DNA from: Nitrospiria bacterium
GTDB lineage: Bacteria; Nitrospirota; UBA9217
Direction: 5' to 3'
Length of the DNA stretch: 64,000 nucleotides
Assembly: GCA_919902495.1 (NCBI GenBank)
Contig: CAKKRC010000018.1
Location: 580-64,579 of the forward strand
Position 1 is the stretch's first letter. Each line of letters starts with the position of its first letter. Positions 8,023-59,213 of this stretch are shown here, in pieces. A program made the translations under genes and the position numbers. The notes beneath the pieces were generated by a model. The model did no database searches. It was not told the DNA's origin and worked only from the letters and a program-made list of their open reading frames with translations.

Positions 8023-8964
8023 ATGATCAGGACGAGAACAGCGGCTTTATTTCTTTTTGCAGCGTGCGCGTTCTGCGCGATCACCGGCAGTTCCGATGCC
8101 GCGACCGGGCCGGTCGTGGTGGACCGGGTCGTCGCCGTGGTGAACGACGATATCATCACCATGAGCGACCTGCAGCGGGAGCTGAAGAAACGCACGGAGA
8201 TCATCGATCAACGGTTGATGCTCGAGAGCATGATCGACCGGAAGCTCCAGATGATAGCCGCGAAGCGGAGCGGCATCGAGGTTACGGACCGGGAGCTCAC
8301 CGAGGGGATCGACGACATCATGAAACGGAATAATTTGGCCGCGGCGCAGTTCGAGCTGGCCCTGGCGAAGGACGGTCTGACGCTCGAGCAGTACCGTGCC
8401 GAGTTGAAGGAGCAGATGATGCTCTCGCGCCTTTTCAATAAATATGTCCGGACCGGGCTTTCCGTGAACGACGCAGAGGCCCGGGCATACTACGACCTGA
8501 ACGCCAAACAATACTCCCTTCCTGAAGAGGTCAAGGTCCGCCACCTCGTGGCGGCAGTGCCGGAAAAGGCATCTTCCGCCCAGGTCAAGGCCGCCCAGGA
8601 GAAGGCCGCCGCCCTCATGGAGCGCATCCGAAAAGGGGAGGATTTCATCCGCCTTATCCGGGAGCATTCCGGCAGTCCAACGGCCAAGCAGGACGGCGAC
8701 CTCGGCTTCCTGCAGCGCGGCCACGCCATACCGGAGCTGGAGGAAGCGGCAAAGAGCCTCAAGCCCGGCGAGTTCGCCGGCCCGGTCAGGTGCGACGACG
8801 GTTTCCATATCATTCGCGTGGAGGACATCCGCACGCCGGTCCAGCCCTTCGAAAAAGTGAAGGAAGACATCACCCGGATGCTCTTCGAGCAGAAGATGGA
8901 GAACACCTATCGGGCGTTTCTCCAGTCCCTTCGGACCGAATCGCACATCGAGAATCGGCTGTAG
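8023..8964 (+). CDS. peptidyl-prolyl cis-trans isomerase, SurA-like (parvulin)
   Basis: ATG 8023 preceded by AAAGGA. Signal peptide. Parvulin domain ...DGDLGFLQRGHAIPELEEAA...GFHIIRVEDIR. The GTG at 7993 in the ORF track is less likely because it has no RBS. Confidence 0.7.
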   Translation: MIRTRTAALFLFAACAFCAITGSSDAATGPVVVDRVVAVVNDDIITMSDLQRELKKRTEIIDQRLMLESMIDRKLQMIAAKRSGIEVTDRELTEGIDDIMKRNNLAAAQFELALAKDGLTLEQYRAELKEQMMLSRLFNKYVRTGLSVNDAEARAYYDLNAKQYSLPEEVKVRHLVAAVPEKASSAQVKAAQEKAAALMERIRKGEDFIRLIREHSGSPTAKQDGDLGFLQRGHAIPELEEAAKSLKPGEFAGPVRCDDGFHIIRVEDIRTPVQPFEKVKEDITRMLFEQKMENTYRAFLQSLRTESHIENRL

Positions 8965-10416: not shown

Positions 10417-10491
10417 GGGCGCTTAGCTCAGCGGGAGAGCACTGCCTTCACACGGCAGGGGCCACTGGTTCAATCCCAGTAGCGCCCACCA
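10417..10491 (+). tRNA. tRNA-Val (anticodon CAC)
   Basis: 75 nt folded by hand. Acceptor GGGCGCT/AGCGCCC. Anticodon arm CTGCC-TTCACAC-GGCAG. T arm ACTGG-TTCAATC-CCAGT. Encoded CCA. A hairpin plus T-run follows. Confidence 0.9.
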
Positions 10492-10504
10492 TGAATTACA
10501 AGGA
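10467..10504 (+). repeat. attL-like copy of a 36-nt direct repeat spanning the tRNA-Val 3' end (second copy at 11514..11552)
   Basis: TTCAATCCCAGTAGCGCCCACCATGAATTACAAGGA is identical at 10469-10504 and 11517-11552. The second copy keeps the T-arm but has no 5' half of a tRNA. Confidence 0.85.
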
Positions 10505-10597
10505 CTTAGCCTGCCAAGGCCAGGTCCTTTTCTTTTTTTATAATTATCGAATACACTAATTCTGTCCAGGGTGCCAACGCCGTCCCGCAGGTTTTTC

Positions 10598-10625
10598 TTG
10601 ACATGTAGCCACGATATTATATAAT
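10598..10625 (+). promoter_or_regulatory. strong sigma70-like promoter for vapBC (TTGACA-16-TATAAT) with overlapping 10-bp palindrome ATTATATAAT
   Basis: -35 at 10598-10603, -10 at 10620-10625. GAGGAG RBS before ATG 10653. Confidence 0.55.
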
Positions 10626-10652
10626 GTATATACAGTCAGAGAGGAGAAAACC

Positions 10653-10850
10653 ATGCAGACAACAACCAAGAAGACAGCCAAACATTTCAGGCTCGATGAA
10701 ACCATGATCAAGAGCGCCCAGAAGATACTCGGCACCAAAACAGCGACAGAGGCGATCGAATCAGCGCTTGCCGAGGTCGTTTACCAGGATAAGATGAGAA
10801 AGCTTATTGAGCAGACGGCCGGGAAATTCAAGTTTGAGGGCCTTCGTTGA
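10653..10850 (+). CDS. vapB: type II antitoxin, VapB-like (65 aa)
   Basis: Small protein immediately upstream of a PIN-domain gene; its stop overlaps the next start (ATGA). Typical antitoxin size and position. Confidence 0.65.
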   Translation: MQTTTKKTAKHFRLDETMIKSAQKILGTKTATEAIESALAEVVYQDKMRKLIEQTAGKFKFEGLR

Positions 10851-11263
10851 AACCAAAAGCCGTTCCTGACACGTCCTTTCTCATTGAGCATTTCAGAGGG
10901 GATACCGTTCAAGAAGCCTTTCTGAGCCTTACCCGTTATTATCATGTTGCATTCAGTTCCGTCGTGCTCATGGAACTGCTTGCTGGTGCCTTTGAACCAA
11001 AGGAGCAAAAACTTATCGACCAGATAGCGAGGAATTTCACCGTTCTATCCGTTACCGAGCGCCAATGGTTCCTCAGCGGCGAAATCATGATGAAGCTGCG
11101 AAGAGACAAAAGAATTGACCGCGAGCGGATCAAAGGACTCCTGGCTGATATCTTGATCGCGGTATCAGTCAGAGACACGGGCGCGGTTCTCATCACGAAA
11201 AATGAAAAAGACTTCAGGCTTATCCGTGAAGTGTACGATTTTAAGTATGTCGCGATTGCATGA
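10847..11263 (+). CDS. vapC: PIN-domain ribonuclease toxin VapC
   Basis: 138 aa. PIN-like acidic residues: D near the N-terminus (PDTSFLIE), ME, and D in ITKNEKDF. Translationally coupled to the upstream antitoxin. Confidence 0.7.
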   Translation: MKPKAVPDTSFLIEHFRGDTVQEAFLSLTRYYHVAFSSVVLMELLAGAFEPKEQKLIDQIARNFTVLSVTERQWFLSGEIMMKLRRDKRIDRERIKGLLADILIAVSVRDTGAVLITKNEKDFRLIREVYDFKYVAIA

Positions 11264-11513
11264 TGTCTTTGCATGATCATCGTGACGAAGGAAGGTGCTA
11301 ATAAAGGAGCGCAAAACTGAAAAGCGGAGAGATGCCGTCAAACAATGATGCAGATTTTAAGGCGGCGGTACGTGTTCTTAAACGGCGGCCAAGCGAGCAC
11401 AGGAAACTGCACATCGGTTCAAGACTCCGGTGGTAATATGGAACAATGGTCGTGTCAAGACCGTAACACCAAAGATGAGCGCAGAGAAATCAAGGTGAGA
11501 GCCGCTTGCTCCT

Positions 11514-11552
11514 GGATTCAATCCCAGTAGCGCCCACCATGAATTACAAGGA
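11514..11552 (+). repeat. attR-like partial tRNA-Val 3' end (direct repeat of 10467..10504)
   Basis: See the attL entry. Followed by an imperfect hairpin plus T-run (11553-11580). Confidence 0.85.
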
Positions 11553-11648
11553 GTTGGCAGAAATCTGCTGACTCTTTTTTGGCCAATACAGGTACTTTCA
11601 TGATATATTTATCACTGAAGGCAACAACCTACAAACGATATTCATTTC

Positions 11649-11969
11649 ATGGCTAAATCGATACAAAAAACATTTCTCCTGTTGATTACCGCCAGCATGG
11701 TGTGTCTTGTCCCGGCGGGCTGCGTATTTCTCAAGACCCCCCCTCCTCCGAAATCACCTGCCCGGCAGCACGTGGATTCCAGGGCCCAGCAGCAGTATTA
11801 CGACCTGGGCCTTCAGCAGTACACCAGGGAGAACTACGGGGAGGCCAAGGAGGCGTTCGAACAGGCCATCGAGCTTGGCCCGAACACGGCGCTGGGTCAG
11901 AAGGCGCAGGAAAATCTCAAAAAGATACAGCGGATACTGAAAACCCTTCAGGAAATAGAGTCTAAATGA
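11649..11969 (+). CDS. TPR-like lipoprotein (106 aa)
   Basis: Lipobox LVPAGC. Single TPR-like segment YGEAKEAFEQAIELGP. Its stop overlaps the start of the next gene (ATGA). Confidence 0.5.
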   Translation: MAKSIQKTFLLLITASMVCLVPAGCVFLKTPPPPKSPARQHVDSRAQQQYYDLGLQQYTRENYGEAKEAFEQAIELGPNTALGQKAQENLKKIQRILKTLQEIESK

Positions 11970-13822
11970 CTGACAGATCCGAAAAAAAGAATAACGGAAC
12001 CGCGGAAGCTGTGACTGCAGAATCGCAGTCGGTGCCTGAAACAAAAAGCGCCGCCGTTCTTCCGCCGCCGGCGAAACCGGACAACGCTCCGCCATCGATT
12101 CCGGGTATCCTGTTGAACCGCCTCTCCTCGCTCAGCGTCCGCTACAAGATCGCCGGAACGCTCATCATGGTGCTGGGCCTGGCGGTTACGTCTCTCGGCA
12201 TCGTGACCTTTGCCCAGCAAAGCATGTCCCTGAGACAGGAATTGAAGAACCGCGCCGAGATCCTGGTCCAGCAGCTCGCGAATGTGGGCAAGGAAGGCCT
12301 GCTGACGAAAGAGGAGCTGCCGGTCTATTCCACCATCACGGACATCCAGAAGCGGAATGACGTGGTCTATGCCATGGTCATGGACGATGAGGGAAAGGTA
12401 TTTGCTCACAATGATATTACCCGGAAGGGAACCGTCCTGACCAGCTCGGTCGACCTGGCGGCGCTCCGGGCAGATGCCCTGTTGTTCCAGGAGACGGGCT
12501 CCGGGGACAGTTCCGTTCTGGATGCAACCATTCCCATCGTTCTGAAGGCGAAGGGTCTCAAGATCGGCGTAGCGCGGATCGGGCTGTCCGAACAGGCGTT
12601 GAACGAGTCGCTGAGCAGGCAGAAGAACCTCTACCTCTGGATCGCCCTGGGATTCGTCATCGGCGGACTTCTCGTTTCCTTCGCGCTCGCCCGCATGATC
12701 ACGCAACCCCTTGATTCCCTGGCGGCGGGGATCCAGATCGTTGCGCGGGGCGATCTGCGCAGGCTGGTCGCCGTGAGCTCGAACGATGAGATCGGGAAAC
12801 TGACGAATGTTTTCAACCAGATGATCCTGAGCCTCCGGGAAAAGCTCCTGATGGAAAAATACCTTTCCCAGCCGACGGTCCAGAGCATCAAGGAACATCG
12901 CGACGTGACGCAGCTTAAGCTAGGAGGCGAGCGGAAGTATGTTACAGCTCTTTTCTCCGACGCGCGCGGCTTTACGTCGCTGTCGGAAAAGATGAGTCCC
13001 GAGGACGTGGTCAGGCTGATGAACGTGTATCTGAACCTGCAGGCGAAGGTCATTCACCAGTTCGGCGGGACCATCGACAAGTTCGTTGGCGATGAGGTCA
13101 TGGCCATCTTCGAAGGGCGGGGCAATGAGATCAACGCGGTGCGGGCCGCGGTGGAGATCCAGAGCTACTGCAAGGCATTGAACGCGGCACGGGTCGCGTC
13201 CGGGGACAAGGCGATCAGCATCGGCATTGGCCTGAACAACGGAGAGGTCGTTATGGGCAACATGGGTTCAGAAGATCATATGGATTATACGGTGATCGGC
13301 GACAACATCAATATTGCCGCACGGATGTGCGGGATCGCGCAGCCGGGAATGGTGCTGGCCAGCAAAGCGATCGCCGAGGCGATCGGCGACCAGGCGTCGC
13401 TGAAGGACCAGCATCCGGTCATGGTAAAAGGGAAGGACCAGCCGATCGGCATCGCCGAGGTGGTAAGCGTCAAAGGCGGCGCCAGGCAGTATATGAGAAA
13501 GACAACGGACGCGCCGGCGACCTATTCGCTCGCGGGTTTTTCCGATGAGACCTTCGCGGCCATCGTAAAGAACGTCAGTCCTGCCGGATGCCTGTTGGTC
13601 GTCGGTGCGCCCATCGGCATTGGTTCAAAATTGATCGTACATCTGGACCTGCTTGAGCTGGACGACGTCGCGATCCATGCTTCGGTCTACCATGCGCGTA
13701 AACAGGATACGACCTATTATGTCGGGCTCTGTTTCGAGGACCTGCCGGAGGACGTAACATACCGCGTTGTCCAGTGGGTGCACCAGGTGAACTCGGAGAT
13801 CGCTGAAGGACTGATGCTCTGA
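11966..13822 (+). CDS. membrane sensor / HAMP / class III adenylate-guanylate cyclase with C-terminal PilZ domain
   Basis: Two TM segments flank a ~200-aa periplasmic domain. HAMP (GDLRRL...IGKLTNVFNQM). CHD cyclase (ALFSDARGFTS...KFVGDEVMAIF...IGLNNGEVVMGNMGS). C-terminal PilZ motifs RQYMR (RxxxR) and NVSPAG ((D/N)xSxxG). Confidence 0.8.
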   Translation: MTDRSEKKNNGTAEAVTAESQSVPETKSAAVLPPPAKPDNAPPSIPGILLNRLSSLSVRYKIAGTLIMVLGLAVTSLGIVTFAQQSMSLRQELKNRAEILVQQLANVGKEGLLTKEELPVYSTITDIQKRNDVVYAMVMDDEGKVFAHNDITRKGTVLTSSVDLAALRADALLFQETGSGDSSVLDATIPIVLKAKGLKIGVARIGLSEQALNESLSRQKNLYLWIALGFVIGGLLVSFALARMITQPLDSLAAGIQIVARGDLRRLVAVSSNDEIGKLTNVFNQMILSLREKLLMEKYLSQPTVQSIKEHRDVTQLKLGGERKYVTALFSDARGFTSLSEKMSPEDVVRLMNVYLNLQAKVIHQFGGTIDKFVGDEVMAIFEGRGNEINAVRAAVEIQSYCKALNAARVASGDKAISIGIGLNNGEVVMGNMGSEDHMDYTVIGDNINIAARMCGIAQPGMVLASKAIAEAIGDQASLKDQHPVMVKGKDQPIGIAEVVSVKGGARQYMRKTTDAPATYSLAGFSDETFAAIVKNVSPAGCLLVVGAPIGIGSKLIVHLDLLELDDVAIHASVYHARKQDTTYYVGLCFEDLPEDVTYRVVQWVHQVNSEIAEGLML

Positions 13823-13883
13823 CGAGCCTCACGCCGCAGGAGCTTCGGTCCATGCATCCCGTGAAAGCACATCGCAACAAAAG

Positions 13884-13920
13884 GGCCTGAAACCATGCAG
13901 GCTCTTTTTTCATTGTTGCG
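13884..13920 (+). terminator. rho-independent terminator after the cyclase gene
   Basis: agGGCCTGaaaccatgCAGGCtc followed by TTTTTTC. Confidence 0.5.
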
Positions 13921-14117
13921 CGGAACGGATGTGCGCGCTGTCTGGATACGGTCACCGGTTCGATCCTGTTCTCCAACCTCGCCGTTCCGGGAGTTCGGCA
14001 CATCCCGTCCTTTCTCGATCCCGTTCTGCCCGTACCTGACGCCCCTGTGAAACAAAAAGGCCGACCGTTTCCGGTCAGCCTTATATTTATTAATGAAGTA
14101 ACGTGCCCGCGCCGACA

Positions 14118-14480
14118 CTATCCCGTCTGGCGCTTTTCGCTCTCTTCCTGCTCGGTCTTGCACTCGATGCAGAGGGTCGTGACCGGACGCGCTTCAAGAC
14201 GCTTGAGGCTTATCTGTCCGCCGCAGGACTCACATACGCCGTAGGTCCCTTCGTCGATCCTGGCAATGGCCTCGTCGATCTTTTTCAGGAGCTTTTGCTC
14301 CCTTCCGCGGAGCCTGAGCAGGAAATTGTTGTCCAGCTCCGCGGCGGCCTGATCCGTGGGATCGGGGAAGCTCTGTTTCTCGGCGCCCAGTTTCGTGCTG
14401 ATCGTATGTTCTGCTTCAGACAAGAGCTCATCCCGCTGGACCATGAGCCTCTTTCGGATGACATTGACCTTATTGTTCAT
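14118..14480 (-). CDS. DksA/TraR-family C4 zinc-finger protein
   Basis: CESCGGQISLKRLEARPVTTLCIECK four-Cys finger with an N-terminal coiled coil. Start at MNNKVNV is preferred. A hairpin plus T-run terminator lies 3' at ~14053-14090. Confidence 0.7.
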   Translation of the reverse strand: MNNKVNVIRKRLMVQRDELLSEAEHTISTKLGAEKQSFPDPTDQAAAELDNNFLLRLRGREQKLLKKIDEAIARIDEGTYGVCESCGGQISLKRLEARPVTTLCIECKTEQEESEKRQTG

Positions 14481-48251: not shown

Positions 48252-49784
48252 ATGCTTGCCAAGGTCATGAGCGCTGCCGTCCTGGGCATCGACGCCTATC
48301 CTGTCGAGGTGGAGGTCGACATCGCGAGCCGCGGCCTTCCGTTCTTCTCCACCGTGGGCCTGCCCGACGCGGCGGTGAAGGAGAGCAAGGAACGCGTCCG
48401 CGCTGCGCTCAAGAACACGGGGTTCGACTTTCCCCTGAAGCAGGTGGTCGTGAACCTCGCGCCCGCGGACATCAAGAAGGAAGGGTCGGCCTTCGACCTG
48501 CCCATTGCCGTCGGCATGCTGATCGCCGAGGGTGTCCTCACGCAGGAGATGGTGGCGGGCTACCTCATCGTGGGCGAGCTTGCGCTCGACGGCAGGGTGA
48601 AGCCGGTGCGGGGCGCTCTCTCCATGGCGGTGTTTGCAAAGAAGGCGGGCTGCCGCGGCATGATCATCCCTGGCGATAACGCGCCGGAGGCGGCGGTCGT
48701 TGAGCCGGTCCCTGTCTTCGGCGTCCGCACTTTGCCGCAGGTCGTGGAGTTCCTGACCGGCGCGGCGACCATGGAACCCGAACGCGTGAACGTCCGGAGC
48801 ACGTTCGAGACATACTCAGTATATCAGGAGGACTTCGCCGAGGTCCGCGGCCAGGAGCACGCCAAGCGCGCCATCGAGATCGCAGCTGCCGGCGGTCATA
48901 ATATCATTATGATCGGCCCTCCCGGCTCCGGCAAGACCATGCTTGCCCGGCGCCTGCCGTCCATCCTGCCGCAGATGAGCTTCGACGAATCCATCGAGAC
49001 CACCAAGATCCACAGCATCATGGGCCTTCTCCGGCAGGGCCAGCCGCTCATCGCGACGCGGCCCTACCGTTCGCCGCACCACACCATCTCCGACGCGGGG
49101 CTCATCGGCGGCGGCCAGGTCCCCAAGCCCGGCGAGGTGAGCCTGTCGCACAACGGCGTGCTGTTCCTGGACGAGCTTCCGGAGTTCAAGCGCAACGTGC
49201 TTGAAGCGCTCCGCCAGCCGCTCGAGGATGGCCACGTCACCATATCGCGCGCCATTACGTCGCTCACCTATCCGGCCTCGCTCATGCTCGTCGCCGCGAT
49301 GAATCCCTGCAAGTGCGGCTTCCATGGCGATCACCAGCACCCGTGCCAGTGCACACCCCACCAGGTACAGACCTACCGCTCCCGCGTGTCCGGCCCGCTC
49401 ATGGACCGCATCGATATCCACATCGAGGTCCCGGCCATCAAGTTCAAGGAGATCACCTCCGACGTTCCCGGAGAGCCGTCGGTCGCGATCCGCGACCGCG
49501 TTACCTTCGCCCGTTCGGTCCAGCAGGAGCGGTTCAAGACCGACGGCATTTACGCCAACGCCCACATGAAACCCCGCCACATCCGCAAGTATTGCAGGAT
49601 CGACGCCGGCTCCCAGCAGCTCATGGAGGCGGCCATGAACCGCCTCGGCCTGTCCGCCCGGGCCTACAACCGCGTCCTCAAGGTCGCCCGCACTATAGCT
49701 GATATCGAAGGCAGCGGCCCCATAGCGACGGAGCACATCTCCGAGGCCATACAATATCGGAGCCTGGACAGAAGGATAAGCTGA
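48252..49784 (+). CDS. comM: YifB/ComM-family Mg-chelatase-like AAA+ ATPase
   Basis: Lon-protease-like N-terminus. Walker A GPPGSGKT. C-terminal ChlI-like domain. 510 aa. Confidence 0.9.
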   Translation: MLAKVMSAAVLGIDAYPVEVEVDIASRGLPFFSTVGLPDAAVKESKERVRAALKNTGFDFPLKQVVVNLAPADIKKEGSAFDLPIAVGMLIAEGVLTQEMVAGYLIVGELALDGRVKPVRGALSMAVFAKKAGCRGMIIPGDNAPEAAVVEPVPVFGVRTLPQVVEFLTGAATMEPERVNVRSTFETYSVYQEDFAEVRGQEHAKRAIEIAAAGGHNIIMIGPPGSGKTMLARRLPSILPQMSFDESIETTKIHSIMGLLRQGQPLIATRPYRSPHHTISDAGLIGGGQVPKPGEVSLSHNGVLFLDELPEFKRNVLEALRQPLEDGHVTISRAITSLTYPASLMLVAAMNPCKCGFHGDHQHPCQCTPHQVQTYRSRVSGPLMDRIDIHIEVPAIKFKEITSDVPGEPSVAIRDRVTFARSVQQERFKTDGIYANAHMKPRHIRKYCRIDAGSQQLMEAAMNRLGLSARAYNRVLKVARTIADIEGSGPIATEHISEAIQYRSLDRRIS

Positions 49785-49889
49785 GCATATCCACCTCGCG
49801 TTTCTTATGTAATTCTCCGCGAAAACCCTACCTACCCGTTCGGGTAGTCGCATCCCCTTAAAATACCCCGACCAAGAACACATAAATAG

Positions 49890-49918
49890 TTGACACTCAC
49901 AATAAAGCTGTATATTAT
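49890..49918 (+). promoter_or_regulatory. consensus sigma70 promoter TTGACA-17-TATTAT upstream of the Rhs gene
   Basis: -35 at 49890-49895, -10 at 49913-49918, in an AT-rich tract. About 130-nt leader to ATG 50055. Confidence 0.55.
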
Positions 49919-50054
49919 CGATTGCACATCACGTAACTACTCACCGCGAAAATTCTTTTCAGCATTAATCAATATCACAGGCATCATCTTAAGATCCATA
50001 TTGCCAGCTAATGACGGCGAATTGCAATCACGCATTGTTACCCGGGGGGGAGAC

Positions 50055-53000
50055 ATGAAGAAGCAAGGCTATGCGTCCGCAGTACTATTGTTCATTCTGT
50101 GCATATCTCAAATGTATGCAATACCTGCCATGGCGAAAGACGGCTACCGCACTGTTGTCATCGATCAGGCCGGCGATCGCGTATTTGCAGTGAACAACGA
50201 CACAGAAGGCATCGACGTCATTGATGCAAAGACAGGGGCGCTTGTTTCCTCTATTCTCTCACGTGCCGATATCGAGGTGTTGGCTCTCGATGAACAGCGC
50301 AAATTGCTCGCAGCGGGAGGAGAGCACGGCGTCAGCATCATTTCAACAGAAACACTTGCTGTCCTGTCGACCATCCGGGTCTCCGGCGAGCCCACTGCCA
50401 TCGCCATTGATCCGACCCTCGGCTATCTTCTGATCGCCGCTGAACATGGAAAACTTTCGATCGTTGATCTCATGGCATTGCGAGTTATTACGGAGATCGA
50501 ACTGCTGGACAAGCCGGTGTCCATCGCTGTTGATCCGACGCTTCATCGCGCAATTGTAGCTCACCACACTTGGGGCAAAGGTTCGGATAGGAAAAAGAGT
50601 GAAGAGGAAAAGATACGCGACAATATATCGATCATTGATCTCTCTACCCTGTCCGTAGTGGCTACTCTTCTTGCCGGAAAAGAACCTGTCGATGTCGACG
50701 TTAATCCCATCACGCACGAAGCCGCAGTCGCGAACGAAAAGAGCGATGATGTCACGCTCATTGATCTTGGGACCGTGAGCGTTAAGGGCACGATCCCCGT
50801 TGATAAGCACCCTTCAGCGCTTTACTACAACAGCTGTCTGAACACGCTCGCCGTAGTCGGCGGAGAAGACAGGTCATGGCTCAGGGTCATCGATCCGGCG
50901 ACACAGGACGTCCAGGTTGTCTCTCGATATCATGATAAGCTTTATGACATAGGGATCCATAACTCGTTGAACAAGGCTGTCCTGGCCGGCAAGTCGAGAA
51001 TCCAATTCGTTGCTCTCCCGAATCCCATACCTCATCTTGACGCTATCTTCCCTAATAAGGCGCTCCGGGGCGGCGGACCATTCGAGATAACGTTAAGCGG
51101 AACAGGGCTTTTGGCTTCAACCGAGGTTTACCTGAACGGCATAAAGGCCGAATCTTCGTTCAAGGCCTGCGGCACGATCACTATTTCGATTTCTGCCACC
51201 CTTCTTGATAATGCCGGAACCATAGAGATCAAAGCGACAAACCCCGCTCCCCAAGGCGGAACGTCGAATATCCTGCTCCTCGCTGTTGAAAATCCTGTTC
51301 CCTCGATCCTGGCGCTCCAACCGACCCAGGCCGCCGCCGGTTCCCTGGATTTAACGCTCACTATCATCGGGAGCGGATTTTTCCCGAATACGCAATTCTT
51401 CATAAACAGCACACCTCGTGCGTTCACGTATCTCAGCGCAACAACGATCCAGACGCAACTGACCGCCGTTGAGCTCGAGACGGGACGCTATATCACCATT
51501 TCCGCGGTCAACCCCCAGCCAGGCGGCGGATCGTCTCTACCGTCCACCTTTACCGTGTTGAATCCCGTTCCAGCGATCTCGTCACTCTCTCCCGCTGAAT
51601 TGACCGCCGGCAGCTCAGACACGACAGTTACGATCACCGGCGACAATTTTGTTATGGGTTCGTCCGTGCTGTTGAACGGACAGCCGATCGCTACCAAATA
51701 CGTCGGAAAAACCAGCATCGAAACCACCCTCGCCGCTGCCCAGCTGGCAAACCCGGGCAGCTTTGCTGTCGAAGTTAGCAATCCCGTGCCCGGAGGCGGA
51801 TCGTCTCCGGCGGTGTCCCTCCTGGTTAAACCGGCAGGCAACAAACCTGACCCGTTGCCCGACGGCAGTTTCGGAAAACAGTACGAGGACCTTGTTCCGA
51901 CGAACGCAACGATCAAAGCCTATGATCCGAAGCGTTTCTCCATCGTGACCGGCCTGATCACCGACAGGACCGGGAATCCCGTTTCCGGTATCCAGGTCTC
52001 GATCCACGGTCACGCCGAATATGGCTCCGCCACGACCGACAATAACGGCAGATATTCGCTTCCCCTCGACGGCGGAACAACATTCACGATGGTCTATCAG
52101 ATGACGGGCCTCATTACGAGCCACCGGCAGGTCTATGTGCCCTGGAACGATATTGCCATCAGCGAGACAGTCACCCTGATCGCCGCGGATTCGAAAGCAA
52201 CCACGGTCACCTTCGACGGTAATCCGACTACGGTGGTGACGCACCGGAGCACACCGGTCACTGATTCCTTCGGCAGCCGGTCCATGACCATGGTATTTAC
52301 CGGCGACAACCACGCGTATGTGACCGACGAGAACGGTTTAGAAACGATCGCAACAACGATTACCACCCGCGCCACGGAGTTCGACACGCCCGAGAGCATG
52401 CCAGCGGTGCTCCCGCCGACCTCGGCTTACACTTACTGCGCCGAACTGTCAGCCGACGGTGCTAAGCATGTTCGCTTCGAGAAACCCGTCGTCACTTATG
52501 TGGAAAACTTCCTGGGCTTTCCCGTCGGCTCGATCGTTCCAGTGGGCTACTACGATCGGGCGAAGGGAACGTGGGTCGCCTCCGACAACGGTGTAGTCGT
52601 GAGGCTGCTTGATACGAACGGCGATGGTATCGTGGATGCCCTGGACAGTACGGGGGACAGCCTGCCGGACGACCTGAACAATGATGGATCGTTCATCGAT
52701 GAGGTAAAGGGCCTCTCCGATGCTGGTATATTCAATCCGGGCGGTACGTACTGGCGCGTTAGCGTCAATCATTTCACCCCGTACGACCACAACTGGCCCT
52801 ATGGACCGCCTGAAGATGCAATTGATCCAAATCCTGAGAGAGATCCGGTCCAAGACAAACAACAACCATGCGATGCCGTTGATTATACCAGCTCCTATTG
52901 CGAGAGAAAGAGCAGAGTGTTTCATGAAGATGTGTCCCTAGCTGGAACAGACATGACGCTGCATTATGCAAGTAACAGAGTACAAGGCTATAAAACGGTT

Positions 53001-56000
53001 ATTTCGATACCCGCAAGCGGACCAACGCTTCCAGGAAGCCTCAAAAGTATTATCGTTCGCATGGAGCTAAGCGGGCGCGTTTTCCAGAGAGTTCTTTCAC
53101 CACGACCGAATCAATCGGTTGAGTTCATTTGGGATGGCCTTGATCATCTTGGGAGACGAGTAATCGGTCCTAAACACGCAAATATAAGCATCGGTTATGG
53201 CTATACATTGGTCTACTATTCTGCGCGGAGTGACGTTCTGTCCTCATGGGCAAGAGTGGGCGATTGGTCACTCGCTATCCCGGGTCGCCAGGACATTATC
53301 GTATGGAAACACAGCAAAATATATGTCCATCGCGATGAGTATCGTTCGGTCGTCAAGGGCTGGACATTGTCTAAGCATCATCATATGACGCCATGGGCCC
53401 CGAATTTGTTGATCAAGGGCGATGGCACAACGATTGACAACCGAGTGCGAACTATTTCGACTATCGCGGGGAATTTCCAACAAGGATACAGCGGCGATGG
53501 TGTTCCTGCCACTCAAGCGAGCTTATATCAGCCTGCGGGTGTAATCGCGGATAAGGCGGGCAACATTTTATTTGCTGATCATTTTAATGATCGGATCCGC
53601 ATGGTGGATACATCCGGAATCATATCGACTGTCGCCGGAAATGGGCGGACGGGATTCAGCGGAGACGGCGGACTTGCAGTAGAGGCGAGCCTGATGTATC
53701 CGACCGGCGTTGCACTGGATAATTACGGCAACCTTTATATTGCAGATGGCGGAAACTCACGAATACGAAAAGTCGACTCTGCGGGAATTATCACAACGAT
53801 AGCCGGCATTGGCCAATATGGATATGGCGGCGACGGAGGCCCAGCTGTGCAGGCGGCGCTCTTTTATCCGAGCGGCGTAGCCGTCGACCGGGAGGGTAAT
53901 GTCTATATTGCCGACTTGGGAAACAGCAGAGTAAGAATAATGGATGCCAGCGGAATAATCCGCACGTTCGCCGGCAATGGAGAGATGTTTTCCTTCAGCG
54001 GCGACGGCGGCCGCGCTGAGGAGGCTGGATTAAGCTATCCCAGCGGTGTAGCGGTTGACGGCAGCGGGAACGTATATATTGCCGATCGATATAACGGACG
54101 GATCAGGAAAGTTGATGTCCGGGGGATAATCACAACCATTGCAGGATCGGGCGACTGGTGGTCCTATAATGGAAATAGCGGAGATGGCGGACCGGCAGTT
54201 GAGGCCTTCATGGTTCCCGAGGCGGTAGCGTTGGATAGCGTGGGGAATATTTATGTTGCTGATCAGGGTCTAAATACAATAAGAAAGATCAATACGAGTG
54301 GAATTATCACAACGATTGCTGGTAATGGAGAATATGGGTATGGTGGGGATGGCGGTCTATCGACGAAAGCTCAGCTCTATTATCCTACAGGAGTGGCCGT
54401 TGATCCGGCGTCAAATGTGTATATCGCGGATTCGTATAGTAATAAAATCCGCAAGATTTCGGAGCTTAACGTCTTCGCGTTACATGTGGTCGAAGGCGAT
54501 ATACCGTTCGCCGATGAAAACGGTTTGGGATACATCATGGGCAGCACCGGTCTGCACAAGAAAACAATCGATCTCGCATCGGGAATTACCCTGCTCGATT
54601 TCGGTTATAATACCAGGGGCGAATTAATATCAATAACAGATCGCTTCGGGAGTCAAACATCGATCCAATGGAATGCAGCAGGAACGATATCGTCCATTAC
54701 GTCGCCTGATGGTATTGTTACCAGCCTGACCGTAGATGGCAACACTCATCTGACAAACATCTCTTATCAGGACGGTTCCTCATATGCTTTCGGCTATACC
54801 GCCGATGGTTTAATGACCGATGAGTATGATCGCAGAAACAACCACTTCATCCACCAATACGCTCCAGCGAGCGGCAGAATCACCTCGATTATCGACCCGG
54901 AGTCCGGCCGCTGGGATTACGAGCACTACACCGATGCAACAGGCACGGTTTTTTCATCAATGCGAACGGCAGAGGGCAATATAATATCCTATCGCGATAA
55001 AGAGGACCTCGCAGGCGCGTACACTTCAGCGCAGACGGACGCTCGGGGTGAAACCACTACGACAACCCTGATGTTGGATGGATTTAGCGCGACGCAAACT
55101 GACGCCTGCGGCGTGAAGAAAGAGACGACCTTTGATATAGATTCGGCTTTTTTCAGCCGATATGAGACCGCATCAGTGGTAACTACGCCAGCAGGGCTTT
55201 CGCGGTCAAGGAACATCAGCAAGTCGTATGCTGATACCAATGCTGACAATATTCCCGATATCAGCATCAAAACGGTTTCCTTGAATGATAAAATATGGCT
55301 GGATGAAATCAATGTCATAGCAGGGACTCGTCGAACGACAACACCACAGGGAAGAAACAGAACGACGATTCATAATCCTTCTAATCTTTTAATTACATCA
55401 ATTGAAACAACGGGTCTCTATTCGGCGATGTTCGGTTACGATTTCCGCGGTCGGCTGACGTCAGCTACCACTGGCAGCAGAACAAGTATTATTGCCTACG
55501 ATGCTTTTGGGCACTACGATTACATCATAACGCCCGATAACCGGAAGTTCGATTATTCTTATGACAGGATGGGGAATCTGCGCTCCCTGCAGCAGCCAGA
55601 CGGTTCCGTGATCAGGTATGATTACGACTTGAGCGGCAATATGACCGTGCTCACGAACGCCAAGAGCGTCACGAATACCTTCAATTACACCGCCAACGAC
55701 CAACGGAAGACCTGGACCACGCCGTTGTCAGGCAGTTATACCTACACGTTCGACAAAGAGCGGAAGCTCAAGACGGTTACCTATCCCTCGGGAAGGGTGC
55801 TCAGCAACACCTATACGAATGGTCTCTTGGCTGGTATGACGACTCCGGAAGGCTCGACTACGTACAGCTATGGATGTTCGGGTCAGCTTTCCGGCGCCGT
55901 GCGCGGTTCTGAGTCGATAGCGTTTACCTATGACGGCTCGCTCATCAAAACCGACTCGCGAGTCGGGACCGTGGGCCAGGCGATCAGCTATACATACAAC

Positions 56001-57431
56001 AACGATTTCAATTTGTCGTCGATTACCTATGCCGGAGTTACGCAGAGCCTCGGCTATGACAACGACGGCCTTTTAATCTCAGCTGCTCCTTACGCCATCA
56101 CCCGGAACGCCCAGAACGGCCTGCCCGAGATGGTTGGAGACGGCAATCTGACACTTTCGAGAACCTTTAGTGGCTACGGCGAGCTTGACCAGAGCGTTTA
56201 TGCCGTGAGCGGAACCCCGCTCTACAGTTGGACCCTTTCACGCGACAACGCAGGCCGGATTACTCAGAAAATAGATGTCATGCCGCTGGGAGGTGTTGTC
56301 TGGGATTACGCTTACGATACCTTGGGCCGGCTGAAGGAAGTGAAGCAGAGCGGCAGTATCGTCGAAAGCTATGAGTACGACGCAAACGGCAACAGGACCT
56401 TCGAAACGAACACTTTCCGGGGAACGAGCAACAGGGCCTATGCCTACTCGCTCGAAGACCATGTCCTGACCGCCGGGCAGGACACCTACCAGTTTGATGC
56501 AGACGGCTTCCTGACGAGAAGAACAACCTCAGCAGGAACGGCTACCTTCACCTATTCATCACGAGGTGAGCTTCTAAGCGCTGCATTGCCTGACGGCAGG
56601 GTGCTCACCTACGACCACGACCCCATGGGCAGGAGAATCGCGAAGCGGGTGAATGGCACGATCATCGAGAAATATCTCTGGCAGGGCGCGACCCGTCTCC
56701 TGGCGGTATACGACAACAGCAACAACCTCGTCATGCGGTTTACCTATGCCGACGGACGGATGCCGGTGTCCATGACAAAGGGTGGTATCACGTACTATCT
56801 CTTCTACGACCAGATCGGCTCGCTCAGGGCGGTTGTGGACGGCAGTGGACAGATCGTAAAGGAAATGGTGTATGATTCCTTCGGGTATATGTATAATGAA
56901 AGCAATCCGGCGTTTACGGTGCCGTTTGGATTTGCTGGGGGGCTCTATGACCGTGATACAGGACTCGTTCGTTTCGGAGCCAGGGATTACGATCTAGCCA
57001 TCGGCAGGTGGACTGCCAAGGACCCCATAGATTTTGCGGGCGGAGACACAAATCTATTTGAGTATGTCTTTTCAAGTCCGATTAATTATACCGATAGTCT
57101 TGGACTAGTGGCTAGATGGCTGGTTCCCGATTCCATAATTAACAACTCACAACAAGTCGTAAATAGGGTAACAAACAATGCTTTTAGCAAAGAGGAATTA
57201 GCGAAATTAACCAATTTGGTCATAAAAAATATTGGGTATCTTGATGCTATACAATTTCAAAAAGTATGGTTTGATACCCAAGGAAATGTTCCGCTCACAA
57301 ATAAGCAAAAAAATATTCTTGACAACTTGTTTAACGAGCTTCTGAATGATGCTGATAATCAGGATTTAATTATGAAAGCCTACGAAGAATATCTTAAAGC
57401 GTTTGAGGAGAAAAAATGCTATCTAAAATGA
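50055..57431 (+). CDS. teneurin-like Rhs/YD-repeat polymorphic toxin (beta-propeller repeats, Ig-like repeats, NHL propeller, YD shell, Rhs core, variable C-terminal tip)
   Basis: GGGGGGAG RBS. Signal peptide MKKQGYASAVLLFILCISQMYAIPAMA. Three ~95-aa tandem repeats each ending NPxPGGGSS. Seven NHL repeats (GDGGxA..YPxGVAVDxxGNVYIAD..RIRK). Many YD motifs. Rhs core end DPIDFAGGDTNLFEYVFSSPINYTDSLGL at 57093-57107, followed by a 108-aa low-GC tip. Confidence 0.85.
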   Translation: MKKQGYASAVLLFILCISQMYAIPAMAKDGYRTVVIDQAGDRVFAVNNDTEGIDVIDAKTGALVSSILSRADIEVLALDEQRKLLAAGGEHGVSIISTETLAVLSTIRVSGEPTAIAIDPTLGYLLIAAEHGKLSIVDLMALRVITEIELLDKPVSIAVDPTLHRAIVAHHTWGKGSDRKKSEEEKIRDNISIIDLSTLSVVATLLAGKEPVDVDVNPITHEAAVANEKSDDVTLIDLGTVSVKGTIPVDKHPSALYYNSCLNTLAVVGGEDRSWLRVIDPATQDVQVVSRYHDKLYDIGIHNSLNKAVLAGKSRIQFVALPNPIPHLDAIFPNKALRGGGPFEITLSGTGLLASTEVYLNGIKAESSFKACGTITISISATLLDNAGTIEIKATNPAPQGGTSNILLLAVENPVPSILALQPTQAAAGSLDLTLTIIGSGFFPNTQFFINSTPRAFTYLSATTIQTQLTAVELETGRYITISAVNPQPGGGSSLPSTFTVLNPVPAISSLSPAELTAGSSDTTVTITGDNFVMGSSVLLNGQPIATKYVGKTSIETTLAAAQLANPGSFAVEVSNPVPGGGSSPAVSLLVKPAGNKPDPLPDGSFGKQYEDLVPTNATIKAYDPKRFSIVTGLITDRTGNPVSGIQVSIHGHAEYGSATTDNNGRYSLPLDGGTTFTMVYQMTGLITSHRQVYVPWNDIAISETVTLIAADSKATTVTFDGNPTTVVTHRSTPVTDSFGSRSMTMVFTGDNHAYVTDENGLETIATTITTRATEFDTPESMPAVLPPTSAYTYCAELSADGAKHVRFEKPVVTYVENFLGFPVGSIVPVGYYDRAKGTWVASDNGVVVRLLDTNGDGIVDALDSTGDSLPDDLNNDGSFIDEVKGLSDAGIFNPGGTYWRVSVNHFTPYDHNWPYGPPEDAIDPNPERDPVQDKQQPCDAVDYTSSYCERKSRVFHEDVSLAGTDMTLHYASNRVQGYKTVISIPASGPTLPGSLKSIIVRMELSGRVFQRVLSPRPNQSVEFIWDGLDHLGRRVIGPKHANISIGYGYTLVYYSARSDVLSSWARVGDWSLAIPGRQDIIVWKHSKIYVHRDEYRSVVKGWTLSKHHHMTPWAPNLLIKGDGTTIDNRVRTISTIAGNFQQGYSGDGVPATQASLYQPAGVIADKAGNILFADHFNDRIRMVDTSGIISTVAGNGRTGFSGDGGLAVEASLMYPTGVALDNYGNLYIADGGNSRIRKVDSAGIITTIAGIGQYGYGGDGGPAVQAALFYPSGVAVDREGNVYIADLGNSRVRIMDASGIIRTFAGNGEMFSFSGDGGRAEEAGLSYPSGVAVDGSGNVYIADRYNGRIRKVDVRGIITTIAGSGDWWSYNGNSGDGGPAVEAFMVPEAVALDSVGNIYVADQGLNTIRKINTSGIITTIAGNGEYGYGGDGGLSTKAQLYYPTGVAVDPASNVYIADSYSNKIRKISELNVFALHVVEGDIPFADENGLGYIMGSTGLHKKTIDLASGITLLDFGYNTRGELISITDRFGSQTSIQWNAAGTISSITSPDGIVTSLTVDGNTHLTNISYQDGSSYAFGYTADGLMTDEYDRRNNHFIHQYAPASGRITSIIDPESGRWDYEHYTDATGTVFSSMRTAEGNIISYRDKEDLAGAYTSAQTDARGETTTTTLMLDGFSATQTDACGVKKETTFDIDSAFFSRYETASVVTTPAGLSRSRNISKSYADTNADNIPDISIKTVSLNDKIWLDEINVIAGTRRTTTPQGRNRTTIHNPSNLLITSIETTGLYSAMFGYDFRGRLTSATTGSRTSIIAYDAFGHYDYIITPDNRKFDYSYDRMGNLRSLQQPDGSVIRYDYDLSGNMTVLTNAKSVTNTFNYTANDQRKTWTTPLSGSYTYTFDKERKLKTVTYPSGRVLSNTYTNGLLAGMTTPEGSTTYSYGCSGQLSGAVRGSESIAFTYDGSLIKTDSRVGTVGQAISYTYNNDFNLSSITYAGVTQSLGYDNDGLLISAAPYAITRNAQNGLPEMVGDGNLTLSRTFSGYGELDQSVYAVSGTPLYSWTLSRDNAGRITQKIDVMPLGGVVWDYAYDTLGRLKEVKQSGSIVESYEYDANGNRTFETNTFRGTSNRAYAYSLEDHVLTAGQDTYQFDADGFLTRRTTSAGTATFTYSSRGELLSAALPDGRVLTYDHDPMGRRIAKRVNGTIIEKYLWQGATRLLAVYDNSNNLVMRFTYADGRMPVSMTKGGITYYLFYDQIGSLRAVVDGSGQIVKEMVYDSFGYMYNESNPAFTVPFGFAGGLYDRDTGLVRFGARDYDLAIGRWTAKDPIDFAGGDTNLFEYVFSSPINYTDSLGLVARWLVPDSIINNSQQVVNRVTNNAFSKEELAKLTNLVIKNIGYLDAIQFQKVWFDTQGNVPLTNKQKNILDNLFNELLNDADNQDLIMKAYEEYLKAFEEKKCYLK
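57108..57431 (+). other. Rhs C-terminal variable (toxin) tip, ~35% GC, no recognisable motif
   Basis: Begins directly after DSLGL. By eye, composition changes abruptly from ~60% to ~35% GC. I recognise no known catalytic motif. Confidence 0.6.
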
Positions 57432-57796
57432 AGAATACAGCAAAAGGATGGCTAGTAACTTTATTGCTAGGCATTTCTTGTGGGACTATATTCTTTTATT
57501 TACTCAAAACACTCCCGTCGAAGTATGCAGATATGTTGTTTTATTTATTTGGCCTCCAATATTTAGTAGCGGCATTAGTTGTCGACAATAGTTCGATTTA
57601 TTACTTATTATTTTCCATATTGCATTTCATTATAATATTTCGATTGTGTTTCTGGTTAGTACGCAAAGAGCTTTCCGTGCGACAGTGGGCATTGGCTATA
57701 TTTGGTTATTTAATTTTTAGCATTTCTATCTTTATTGGATCGGCGTACATTTTTTTCCATTATGTTATGCGAATAGGTGAAACCATTTCGCAATAA
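57416..57796 (+). CDS. 4-TM small membrane protein, candidate cognate immunity protein
   Basis: ATG overlaps the toxin stop codon region. AT-rich like the tip. Four hydrophobic helices. Confidence 0.55.
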   Translation: MLSKMKNTAKGWLVTLLLGISCGTIFFYLLKTLPSKYADMLFYLFGLQYLVAALVVDNSSIYYLLFSILHFIIIFRLCFWLVRKELSVRQWALAIFGYLIFSISIFIGSAYIFFHYVMRIGETISQ

Positions 57797-57842
57797 TTAT
57801 CAAGTATATTTTCTATTCAGAACAGCAAAATCGGATTGATAG

Positions 57843-57874
57843 GTGCGTATGGGGTCCGGTGCGTATGGGGTCCG
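57843..57874. repeat. tandem direct repeat 2 x GTGCGTATGGGGTCCG (16 nt)
   Basis: Read directly: identical units at 57843-57858 and 57859-57874, GC-rich in an AT-rich context. Confidence 0.7.
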
Positions 57875-57896
57875 ACTTGAATCTGTAGTTATTGCT

Positions 57897-58400
57897 TCAC
57901 ACCCGATCATTTCGAGTAAGGAATGACTGTATCCTCTCGATGTTCTTCCTGCTCGGCCGCATCCTTCCGCTCATCCAGTCTGTCAGTTGCTCCGGATCCC
58001 GACCCATCACAGCTCCCAGCCGCTCATAGGACAGACCGTTTACGCGTTTATAGTACTTGAGCCTGCCAATGGTATCCTCCGGGCAGGGGAAGGGGACATA
58101 CCCCAAGAATTGGATCACCGCGGGCATATACTTTAGCTCCGGCTCGGTTCCACGCTCCCAGTTATAAACCGAAGCCTCTGAAACGCCTACCTGTTTTGCA
58201 ACCTGCCGTTGGAATAATCCCAAATCAATTCGACGCTTGCGGATATGGTCTCCGATGGTTCGGGGATTGCCAGTATAACCCCGGGGTGCTATAATCGGCC
58301 GTGGTAATGAAAACCTATATATCGGCCACTCGAAAAAGGTGCCTGAACCCCTGCAAGTGCGGCTTCCATGGCGATCACCAGCACCCGTGCCAGTGCACAC
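57897..58400 (-). CDS. XRE-family HTH regulator; N-terminus runs without a canonical start into the duplicated comM fragment
   Basis: HTH: IGDHIRKRRIDLGLFQRQVAKQVGVSEASVYNWERG. No ATG/GTG/TTG lies within 30 codons upstream of the HTH. The only in-frame Met (58400) is inside the antisense of the comM duplicate, so the 5' end may be disrupted. Confidence 0.5.
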   Translation of the reverse strand: MCTGTGAGDRHGSRTCRGSGTFFEWPIYRFSLPRPIIAPRGYTGNPRTIGDHIRKRRIDLGLFQRQVAKQVGVSEASVYNWERGTEPELKYMPAVIQFLGYVPFPCPEDTIGRLKYYKRVNGLSYERLGAVMGRDPEQLTDWMSGRMRPSRKNIERIQSFLTRNDRV

Positions 58401-58828
58401 CCCACCAGGTACAGACCTACCGCTCCCGCGTGTCCGGCCCGCTCATGGACCGCATCGATATCCACATCGAGGTCCCGGCCATCAAGTTCAAGGAGATCAC
58501 CTCCGACGTTCCCGGAGAGCCGTCGGTCGCGATCCGCGACCGCGTTACCTTCGCCCGTTCGGTCCAGCAGGAGCGGTTCAAGACCGACGGCATTTACGCC
58601 AACGCCCACATGAAACCCCGCCACATCCGCAAGTATTGCAGGATCGACGCCGGCTCCCAGCAGCTCATGGAGGCGGCCATGAACCGCCTCGGCCTGTCCG
58701 CCCGGGCCTACAACCGCGTCCTCAAGGTCGCCCGCACTATAGCTGATATCGAAGGCAGCGGCCCCATAGCGACGGAGCACATCTCCGAGGCAATTCAGTA
58801 CCGGAGCCTCGACAGAAGGATAAGCTGA
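58345..58828 (+). pseudogene. comM: orphan duplicate of the comM 3' end (last 161 codons)
   Basis: Matches 49301-49784 base for base. Exceptions: one synonymous change at the first codon and five synonymous changes clustered in the last 45 nt. The encoded C-terminus is identical. A TATAAT at 58290-58295 and an in-frame ATG at 58307 lie just upstream. Confidence 0.8.
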
Positions 58829-58880: not shown

Positions 58881-59213
58881 ATGAAAACAAGTGGACTGTC
58901 GGAGCATGAAAAGGCCGCCCTTGCGAAGCTGAAGAAGACGCTTGAAGAGCGGTTTAATCTTATTGATTTCCGCGTGTTCGGGTCAAAAGCGCGCGGCGAG
59001 GCTGTTCCCGAATCCGATATCGATGTGATGATTGAGATCGAAGAGTACAACCCGCTGACGGAGTCAGAAATAGACGAATTGGTGTTTAAGATCAACCTAG
59101 AATATGACTGCTTTATATCGGTAGTCATTTTCGGCAGGCGCGAACTTGAAGAGGGGCCCCTGGGAGAATCTCCCCTGTACCGCGTGATCGAAAGAGAGGG
59201 GATCAAGGTTTGA
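58881..59213 (+). CDS. minimal nucleotidyltransferase (MNT) antitoxin
   Basis: FGSKARGEAVPESDIDVMIE, a Pol-beta-type NTase GS..D.D motif. 110 aa. Confidence 0.7.
   Translation: MKTSGLSEHEKAALAKLKKTLEERFNLIDFRVFGSKARGEAVPESDIDVMIEIEEYNPLTESEIDELVFKINLEYDCFISVVIFGRRELEEGPLGESPLYRVIEREGIKV

Follow-up and report, generated by a model that had tools for sequence, protein, structure and literature searches.

The window analysed here is a 64,000-nt stretch of contig CAKKRC010000018.1, and its single tRNA-Val(CAC) gene is followed by a 1,012-bp insert that holds a vapBC toxin-antitoxin operon between two exact copies of a 36-nt sequence taken largely from the 3' end of that tRNA gene. The corresponding site is empty in related genomes, and relatives of the host carry integrases at the same tRNA. 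We consider it probable that this islet is the streamlined, integrase-less remnant of an integrative element that targeted the tRNA gene, a remnant of the kind known as a cis-mobilizable element (CIME). The features of the locus are listed below; labels such as L002 and L041 denote homologous loci that were fetched for comparison, 110 in all.

10417-10491, plus strand: intact tRNA-Val(CAC), the 3' part of which, from the T-loop on, is covered by the left repeat (ARAGORN; Rfam RF00005)
10469-10504, plus strand: left copy of the exact 36-nt direct repeat (attL-type core)
10500-10539, plus strand: islet-borne terminator hairpin with T-run (terminator scan; the same hairpin in L109 and a compensated variant in L100)
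10505-10584, no strand: left non-coding arm, 80 nt, with no homologue outside the three islet-bearing lineages (blastn, tblastx)
10598-10633, plus strand: vapBC promoter with the spacer motif TGTAGCCAC and the palindrome GTATATAC, a 12/12 match conserved at five homologous loci
10653-10850, plus strand: vapB antitoxin gene, 65 aa (PF09957, 25.4 bits against a cut-off of 23.4, E=1.3e-5)
10847-11263, plus strand: vapC-like PIN toxin gene, 138 aa, TTG start (PF01850, 43.1 bits against a cut-off of 23.6, E=7.7e-11)
11264-11516, no strand: right non-coding arm, 253 nt, with stops in all six frames and no Rfam or structure signal
11517-11552, plus strand: right copy of the 36-nt repeat (attR-type core), made up of the displaced native tRNA 3' fragment (11517-11539) and the native 13 nt
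11548-11580, plus strand: native tRNA-Val terminator hairpin, parted from its tRNA by the islet (alignment with the empty loci L002, L004, L082, and L103)

The repeat and the tRNA-Val gene

The 36-mer TTCAATCCCAGTAGCGCCCACCATGAATTACAAGGA occurs exactly twice, at a spacing of 1,048 nt, which confirms the statement in a preliminary description of this DNA that the tRNA-Val 3' end plus 13 nt recurs exactly about 1.05 kb downstream. None of 100 shuffles of the window gave an equal match, and none is expected by chance. The similarity of the two copies reaches 42 nt with two mismatches. The tRNA part of the repeat, 23 nt long, consists of the T-loop, the 3' strands of the T-stem and acceptor stem, and CCA, and is followed by the 13 nt downstream. 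The second copy had been described as the T-arm and 3' half of the tRNA, a reading that holds for these elements but not for the 5' strand of the T-stem, which is not duplicated. The window contains two tRNA genes, and the only tRNA-Val(CAC) among them is the intact one (66 bits in Rfam). Neither ARAGORN nor Rfam detected any tRNA-like sequence ahead of the right copy or a second tRNA nearby; the objection that this copy is part of a second full tRNA gene was thus examined and can be dismissed.

A direct repeat that contains the 3' end of the target gene, here 23 nt of tRNA-Val within an exact 36-nt repeat, is characteristic of a decayed integrative element. The geometry is that of attachment (att) sites, running from the T-loop through CCA into the flank, and the element-side copy brings a different terminator with it: the tRNA-Val transcript is now ended by the islet-borne hairpin, unlike the native one, which lies beyond the right repeat. 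Terminal inverted repeats, as expected of a transposon or a miniature inverted-repeat transposable element, were not found at the ends of the islet, and the duplication is 36 nt long and tRNA specific. The predicted empty attB junction would read GGGGCCACTGGTTCAATCCCAGTAGCGCCCACCATGAATTACAAGGAGTTGGCAGAAATC, and the predicted circular attP would read GAGCCGCTTGCTCCTGGATTCAATCCCAGTAGCGCCCACCATGAATTACAAGGACTTAGCCTGCC.

Empty sites in related genomes

Part of a 257-kb Hainich groundwater contig (ENA ERZ1292633; L095) matches the window at 100% identity. The host lineage belongs to the uncultured Nitrospirota, and a related metagenome-assembled genome (MAG), the one behind L109, is labelled class UBA9217. 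An rRNA-methyltransferase-like gene followed by tRNA-Val(CAC) is an order that is kept in about 45 loci from species-representative MAGs. In the closest of these representatives (L002; 91% amino-acid identity), the tRNA is identical to that of the window at 75/75 positions and the site behind it is empty. The distance from the tRNA to the next gene, which encodes a TPR lipoprotein, is 110 nt in L002; in the window the same gene lies 110 nt from the right tRNA fragment and 1,158 nt from the intact tRNA. The alignment with L002 joins the left flank and tRNA of the window to the sequence past the right repeat. The islet is likewise absent from the same site in L004, in L082, which carries the exact 36-mer once, and in L103/L104, making four empty lineages together with L002. 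Since, at the empty sites, the left flank and tRNA run straight into the post-repeat sequence, the islet is an insertion, and the right copy of the repeat is the displaced native 3' end. This copy is identical to the lone copy at the empty site of L082. We also considered whether the repeat might be a duplicated terminator that is present in relatives lacking vapBC, but in L082, L002, L004, and L103 the 36-mer or its homologue is found once only. In the source metagenomes, every contig with an identical TPR neighbour is either filled or broken exactly at the repeat.

The vapBC operon and its promoter

Toxins of the VapC family are RNases that depend on Mg and cleave tRNA or 23S rRNA, and VapB neutralises the toxin and represses the promoter. 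The overlapping VapB/VapC (PIN) pair that had been noticed earlier was recovered by Pfam with both scores above the cut-offs, and the order is that of VapBC systems: a small VapB-family antitoxin gene lies upstream of the PIN-domain toxin gene and overlaps it by 4 nt (TTGA), the TTG start of vapC overlapping the stop of vapB. The acidic residues D8, E43, D101, and D122 of the PIN protein were picked out by eye from its sequence, not from a structure. We name the toxin VapC-like because it scores below the cut-off of the NCBIfam VapC equivalog (NF047959; 37.9 bits against 80). No relatives of VapC were detected in the PDB by sequence. At E<=1e-10 there are 376 VapC homologues, nearly all of them 138 aa long, and the best 120 of the 376 are 82-99% identical. 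In the public gene call (L095, 3322-3615), vapC is started at an internal ATG, which yields a 97-aa product with no Pfam hit recorded instead of the 138-aa family form that starts at TTG; this wrong start means that automated annotation hides the PIN toxin.

The strong promoter TTGACA-16-TATAAT reported in the preliminary description is present at 10598-10625 and matches the sigma-70 consensus at 12/12 positions. Its -35 and -10 hexamers are conserved across vapBC homologues. The same holds for TGTAGCCAC, which lies between them, and for the palindrome GTATATAC (10626-10633), which comes just past the -10 hexamer, and the whole region (10598-10633) is a candidate autoregulatory operator. A different palindrome, ATTATATAAT (10616-10625), had been proposed to be operator-like. 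It is present, but it is not conserved in the vapBC homologues, and we reject it as the operator for lack of this conservation. Against five homologues, dN/dS (the ratio of nonsynonymous to synonymous divergence) was 0.05-0.08 for vapC and 0.05-0.14 for vapB, values which indicate that the operon is under strong purifying selection. As judged from dN/dS of 0.05-0.14, the 12/12 promoter, and the conserved length and start, vapBC appears to be functional.

In nine other contexts (L084-L094), the vapBC genes either form part of toxin-antitoxin arrays, in many cases with a transglutaminase-like gene downstream, or lie elsewhere, and tRNA-Val is absent from all nine. Their DNA similarity to the window starts at 10585-10668, mostly at the promoter, and ends at the vapC stop or 16 nt earlier. 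With tRNA-Val missing from all nine and homology confined to the stretch from promoter to stop, the close VapC homologues failed as a pointer to a parent element. The arrays in related Nitrospirota that contain close vapBC homologues are dense (L084, 3481-8723; L092, 288-2140), with MazE-PIN, RlaP, Phd-PIN, VapB-PIN, HigB-HTH, and Phd/ParE members, and lie repeatedly upstream of a large transglutaminase-core gene. They look like a second toxin-antitoxin hotspot of the clade.

Composition and non-coding arms of the islet

The G+C content of the islet is 46-49%, compared with 58% for the window, an atypical composition of the kind found in genomic islands, and the islet DNA is foreign by this measure. 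Family matches within it are limited to vapB and vapC, so that integrase, excisionase, and transfer genes are lacking. This agrees with the earlier statement that no integrase lies between the repeats; no integrase gene stands beside the tRNA in the islet, and no remnant of one is detectable there. A search of either arm for an integrase pseudogene gave noise with the L041 and L038 integrases (tblastn) and nothing against all fetched loci (tblastx). No homologue of the L041 integrase was found in the whole 64-kb window, in a search that did not include a full Pfam scan of every window open reading frame (ORF).

The right arm may be a former attP arm. It shows no sign of a structured RNA, with no Rfam match and folding z-scores of 0.03 and 1.29. 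Arm-type integrase-binding repeats were sought as 7-9-mers common between or within the arms, and none occurred above shuffle level. A 13-nt tandem duplication, TTGCATGATGTCT / TTGCATGATCATC, at 11256-11281 spans the stop codon of vapC. The unit is single in L098 and L109, where the protein ends in AIA and AVA, respectively, and is neither truncated nor extended.

The islet in other lineages

An exact look-up of VapB returned L100, L101, and L102, all from other studies, and for this lineage L098 adds sequence through vapC and into the right arm. In the L100 lineage, the methyltransferase gene is 88% identical to that of the window, with a synonymous divergence (dS) of 0.36, and the upstream spacer is unalignable; the tRNA, the following 13 nt, the promoter, and vapBC stand in the same arrangement as in the window. 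In the third filled lineage, L109/L110, identity to the window is about 89.6% in the host flanks and 95.4% in vapBC, and the left junction, terminator, and promoter are the same. About 255 nt are missing from this lineage, corresponding to the right arm and tRNA fragment of the window, and the right repeat is thereby lost.

The host genes of the two other filled lineages differ from those of the window by 10-12% (dS 0.26-0.42), and the non-coding arms show a divergence similar to that of the host DNA (80-94% identity): the left arm is about 89% identical to that of L109 (counted by eye on the alignment) and 80% identical to that of L100, and the right arm is 94% identical to that of L098. In the cyclase gene, dS is 0.26 between the window and L109 versus 0.385-0.41 to the empty lineages, and in the 3' part of the methyltransferase gene it is 0.30-0.38 within the filled group versus 0.39-0.63 between filled and empty lineages. 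The simplest history is a single insertion in the common ancestor of the three species-level lineages, in which the islet had already shrunk to about 1 kb, with vertical inheritance and a later loss of attR in one branch. That three species-level lineages share the islet implies that the stripping-down happened long ago.

The vapBC core has a different history from the DNA around it. From the promoter to the vapC stop (10585-11255), the window and the L100 lineage show about 5 differences in 671 nt (99.3% identical); vapB is identical at 198/198 positions, and dS of vapC is 0.011. The host gene shows 81 differences in 690 nt (Fisher p=2e-19 against the vapBC core), the left arm 16 in 80 (p=9e-13), and the right arm 6 in 99 (p=1e-3). 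Because purifying selection cannot erase synonymous differences, we conclude that the vapBC core was exchanged recently between lineages. Since the arms, which lie inside the repeats, did not travel with the core, this exchange was a homologous-recombination patch and not an att-to-att excision and reintegration. Between the window and L109, dS is 0.375 for vapB and 0.10 for vapC, a pattern that looks mosaic but is based on few sites.

The tRNA-Val to dksA junction

In 8 loci, dksA lies 56-96 nt behind tRNA-Val, and in the others the gap ranges from 0.3 to >5.8 kb; the short form looks like the ancestral junction. In seven relatives, an extra 3' fragment of tRNA-Val lies 0.9-5.5 kb downstream. 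The repeats start in the anticodon loop in L003, L024, L040, and L052 and in the T-arm in L023, L026, L038, and the window, and these two start points imply at least two recombinase specificities. A tyrosine integrase of 397 aa is encoded in L041, with the 3' end of its gene abutting the tRNA. In L038, a 205-aa C-terminal integrase fragment, 87% identical to that of L041 (PF00589, E=3.5e-20), lies in a 3.6-kb island with a T-arm-type repeat, and weaker integrase fragments adjoin the tRNA in L030, L011, and L013. The islet of L023 is 952 nt long, has no integrase, and contains only Phd (E=3.8e-15) and ParE (E=2.8e-14). Thus, a full integrase (L041), a truncated one (L038), and none at all (L023) are all found behind one tRNA in this clade.

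A further case is the array at L040 (7320-9081), where a first tRNA-Val precedes brnT (E=2.8e-27) and its partner gene, after which come a full-length second tRNA-Val (8186-8262), a gene for a lipoprotein, and a 3' tRNA fragment. Its repeats are about 100 nt long, more toxin-antitoxin-like genes follow downstream, and the arrangement resembles accretion. The cargo of L024 consists of XRE-ImmA, a 169-aa ORF without Pfam match, and an insertion sequence transposase, and L003, L026, and L052 carry unrelated cargo. The gap between tRNA-Val and dksA is an insertion hotspot in this clade.

Two further observations concern this tRNA. In the window (11649-14480), genes for the TPR lipoprotein and for an sCache-HAMP-cyclase-PilZ protein (about 2.5 kb) lie between tRNA-Val and dksA, and the same is true of L002, L004, L082, L103, and L109. 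Because dksA follows the tRNA after 56-96 nt in eight other species, the hotspot may have received this gene pair in an earlier insertion, of which no repeat remains. At L083 (6859-6968; Ga0137447_1000110), a tRNA-Val stands beside an asparagine-synthase-like gene, with a 5' part of the 'GGGCGAT' type, a 3' part of the window type, an A6-G67 mismatch in the acceptor stem, and an L100-type islet terminator next to it. L083 could be a case of this element type integrating in a distant host, or else an assembly chimera joined across the conserved 39-nt core of the tRNA.

Origin of the islet

Under the favoured explanation, a larger element would have integrated site specifically into the T-loop/3' end of tRNA-Val(CAC), a tyrosine integrase presumably having recombined attP with attB at a crossover in or near the T-loop. 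Both a terminator and a copy of the tRNA 3' end would have come with the element, which would leave the tRNA intact at the left junction and a displaced native 3' fragment at the right. Deletions would then have removed everything, the integrase included, except for the vapBC operon and ends of about 80 nt and 250 nt. The insertion would date to the common ancestor of at least three species-level lineages of UBA9217 and would have been inherited vertically thereafter. Selection appears to have kept vapBC functional, presumably through post-segregational toxicity (addiction), through another benefit, or both, and transcription presumably starts at the operon's strong promoter, which is probably autoregulated. 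In one lineage, the right arm and right repeat were later deleted, which would have fixed the genes where they are, and the core was swapped recently between lineages by homologous recombination. The preliminary description had seen here the footprint of a tRNA-targeting element that decayed to its addiction module, an interpretation which is supported by the empty sites, the low G+C content, and the integrases and integrase fragments at the same tRNA in relatives.

Several points weigh against this explanation. Neither a larger parent nor an integrase gene has left any trace in the islet, and nothing in phages, plasmids, or viral contigs matched the 36-mer, the VapC protein, or the islet as a whole. 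The decay step therefore rests on the analogy with relatives. The L041/L038 integrase family has a different sequence at its left end, so that the element represented by these integrases is not the parent. The 36-nt repeat of the window is still perfect despite the age of the islet: for the 49 unconstrained positions of the repeat, the probability of no change is 0.09 at a per-lineage divergence of 5% and 0.0002 at 17%. The perfect repeat could reflect sites that were maintained, or a repeat younger than we have inferred. Finally, the clustering of the filled lineages, although clear for the cyclase gene, is weak for the full-length methyltransferase gene.

The preliminary description had offered as a second possibility a very small mobilisable cassette. 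In such a case the islet would never have needed an integrase gene and would still be mobile, moved in trans by a tyrosine integrase specific for tRNA-Val that another part of the genome or an incoming element encodes, and its repeats and arms would be functional attL and attR sites. The clade does have integrases that use this tRNA, other toxin-antitoxin islets of about 1 kb occur behind it, both non-coding arms fall within the size range of attP arms, and both repeats are perfect after a long vertical history. The tRNA-Val of L083, which in an unrelated context joins a 5' part of another type to the islet 3' end and an L100-type terminator, would also fit, but its contig ends 22 nt past the repeat and may be an assembly chimera. 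However, the arms have no copies anywhere else in the 110 fetched loci, viral contigs, phages, or plasmids; all three filled lineages hold the islet at the same locus, with arms that diverge like host DNA; the recent exchange was limited to the vapBC core and did not involve the whole att-to-att unit; arm-type repeats are lacking; and the contigs of the source population are all filled. Apart from the intact repeats, the mobilisable cassette thus gains no positive support, with no other copy, no phage or plasmid match, and arms that co-diverge with the host, and we regard current mobility as unlikely. The broader proposal that att-flanked toxin-antitoxin operons of about 1 kb (vapBC here, phd/parE in L023, and brnT in L040) form a class of minimal, integrase-less cassettes kept mobilisable in trans by the clade's circulating tRNA-Val-specific integrases is more doubtful still. 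If it were true, toxin-antitoxin pairs would spread as hitch-hiking 'att cassettes' and would not be mere survivors of decay.

An origin through RecA without any integrase has also to be considered, in which a circular or linear fragment with vapBC and a tRNA-Val 3' end was acquired from another Nitrospirota genome and inserted either by a single crossover of the Campbell type within the tRNA 3' end or by a double crossover in flanking genes. Homologous exchange is evident in the islet (the core is 99.3% identical, the host gene 88%; Fisher p=2e-19), and recombination at flanking core genes has been proposed as a way in which toxin-antitoxin islets spread (PMC13617665). A second island in the window, described below, is bracketed by a 485-nt duplication of the 3' end of comM, a length suited to RecA, and has no homologue of the L041 integrase. 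On the other hand, an identity of 36-42 nt is marginal for RecA, the repeat begins exactly at the T-loop, which is a classic integrase crossover sublocation, and a flanking double crossover creates no duplication of a tRNA fragment. Since such a crossover only moves an existing islet, an integrase-type event is still needed at the origin. RecA recombination is possible as a route of spread between relatives, and as the sole source of the islet it seems to us quite improbable. We give hardly any credence to the idea that the tRNA 3' end and terminator were duplicated locally in tandem, or to that of a very long target-site duplication made by transposition. Terminator-like repeats can arise by slippage, and the islet has a 13-nt tandem duplication at the vapC stop, but the copies of the 36-mer stand 1 kb apart across foreign DNA of low G+C content, the hairpins behind them differ, there are no terminal inverted repeats, and integrase-bearing islands of relatives share the same geometry at the same tRNA. 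To our knowledge, a target duplication of 36 nt would be far longer than any that a transposase makes.

Comparison with known systems

According to previous research, CIMEs are elements that lack integration and transfer genes but have kept attL and attR (PMC5704250). Like the CIMEs described together with elements that are integrative and conjugative (ICEs) and with those that are integrative and mobilizable (IMEs), e.g., in Streptococcus, the islet occupies a site at which other elements integrate and accrete, as in the array at L040. It differs in that no parent ICE or IME can be identified, in that the window holds no tandem partner element, in its Nitrospirota host, and in its size, which at 1 kb and one operon is at the extreme small end. 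As a VapBC type II system, the islet is typical in its PIN and VapB Pfam matches, in its overlapping genes with the antitoxin first, in its strong promoter with a palindrome, and in the apparent strong purifying selection, and differs in the toxin score of 37.9 bits against the equivalog cut-off of 80 and in having no sequence relative in the PDB.

A 'streamlining' route to toxin-antitoxin-only islets, in which the genes arrive on mobile elements and linked genes are lost afterwards, has been described (PMC13617665), as in the acquisition-streamlining-erosion model (Hayes and Van Melderen 2011, as given in PMC13617665; Belot et al. 2026). The islet resembles these chromosomal islets in being a lone type II operon between two core genes, with no signature genes of mobile elements, in a spot of high turnover, and in its later spread or exchange by homologous recombination. 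Unlike them, it retains both att-type repeats and the displaced tRNA fragment in perfectly readable form, and because these integration scars are still readable, its entry route can be named. It has also outlasted splits at the species level, in contrast to the short-lived linkage pictured in PMC13617665. The tycheposon islands of Prochlorococcus include remnants with partial tRNAs and fragmented integrases (bioRxiv 10.1101/2020.12.28.424599). The locus is similar in that partial tRNA copies mark successive integrations in a hotspot, and in that fragmented integrases and cargo-only remnants occur in related genomes. It differs in having no integrase or replication module of the tycheposon type, in a cargo of toxin-antitoxin genes rather than nutrient-acquisition genes, and in its clade and habitat.

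The islet is a CIME-like toxin-antitoxin islet, a known kind of element, and reveals no new mechanism. Its value is that of an unusually legible specimen of a process that is mostly only inferred, with both scars kept in a lone toxin-antitoxin islet. The relatives add a series of empty sites, full and truncated integrases, other toxin-antitoxin-only islets, and a copy without the right scar. This series supports the route of acquisition on an integrative element followed by streamlining, in an uncultured groundwater phylum whose mobile elements are little studied, and identifies the junction between tRNA-Val and dksA as a hotspot of integration in class UBA9217.

Other features of the window

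At 48252-58828, a duplicated 3' end of the target gene flanks a second island. The target is a comM/yifB-like Mg-chelatase gene (48252-49784), the last 485 nt of which recur at 58344-58828 with 98.8% identity. The cargo includes an RHS/teneurin-like YD-shell protein of 2,513 aa (49890-57431), along with an XRE-type HTH gene on the minus strand (57897-58400). A search of this island for a homologue of the L041 integrase was negative, the remaining ORFs not having been scanned. Just downstream, a HEPN-domain ORF (59210-59608; PF05168, E=2.2e-14) may be part of a toxin-antitoxin pair of the HEPN/MNT type.

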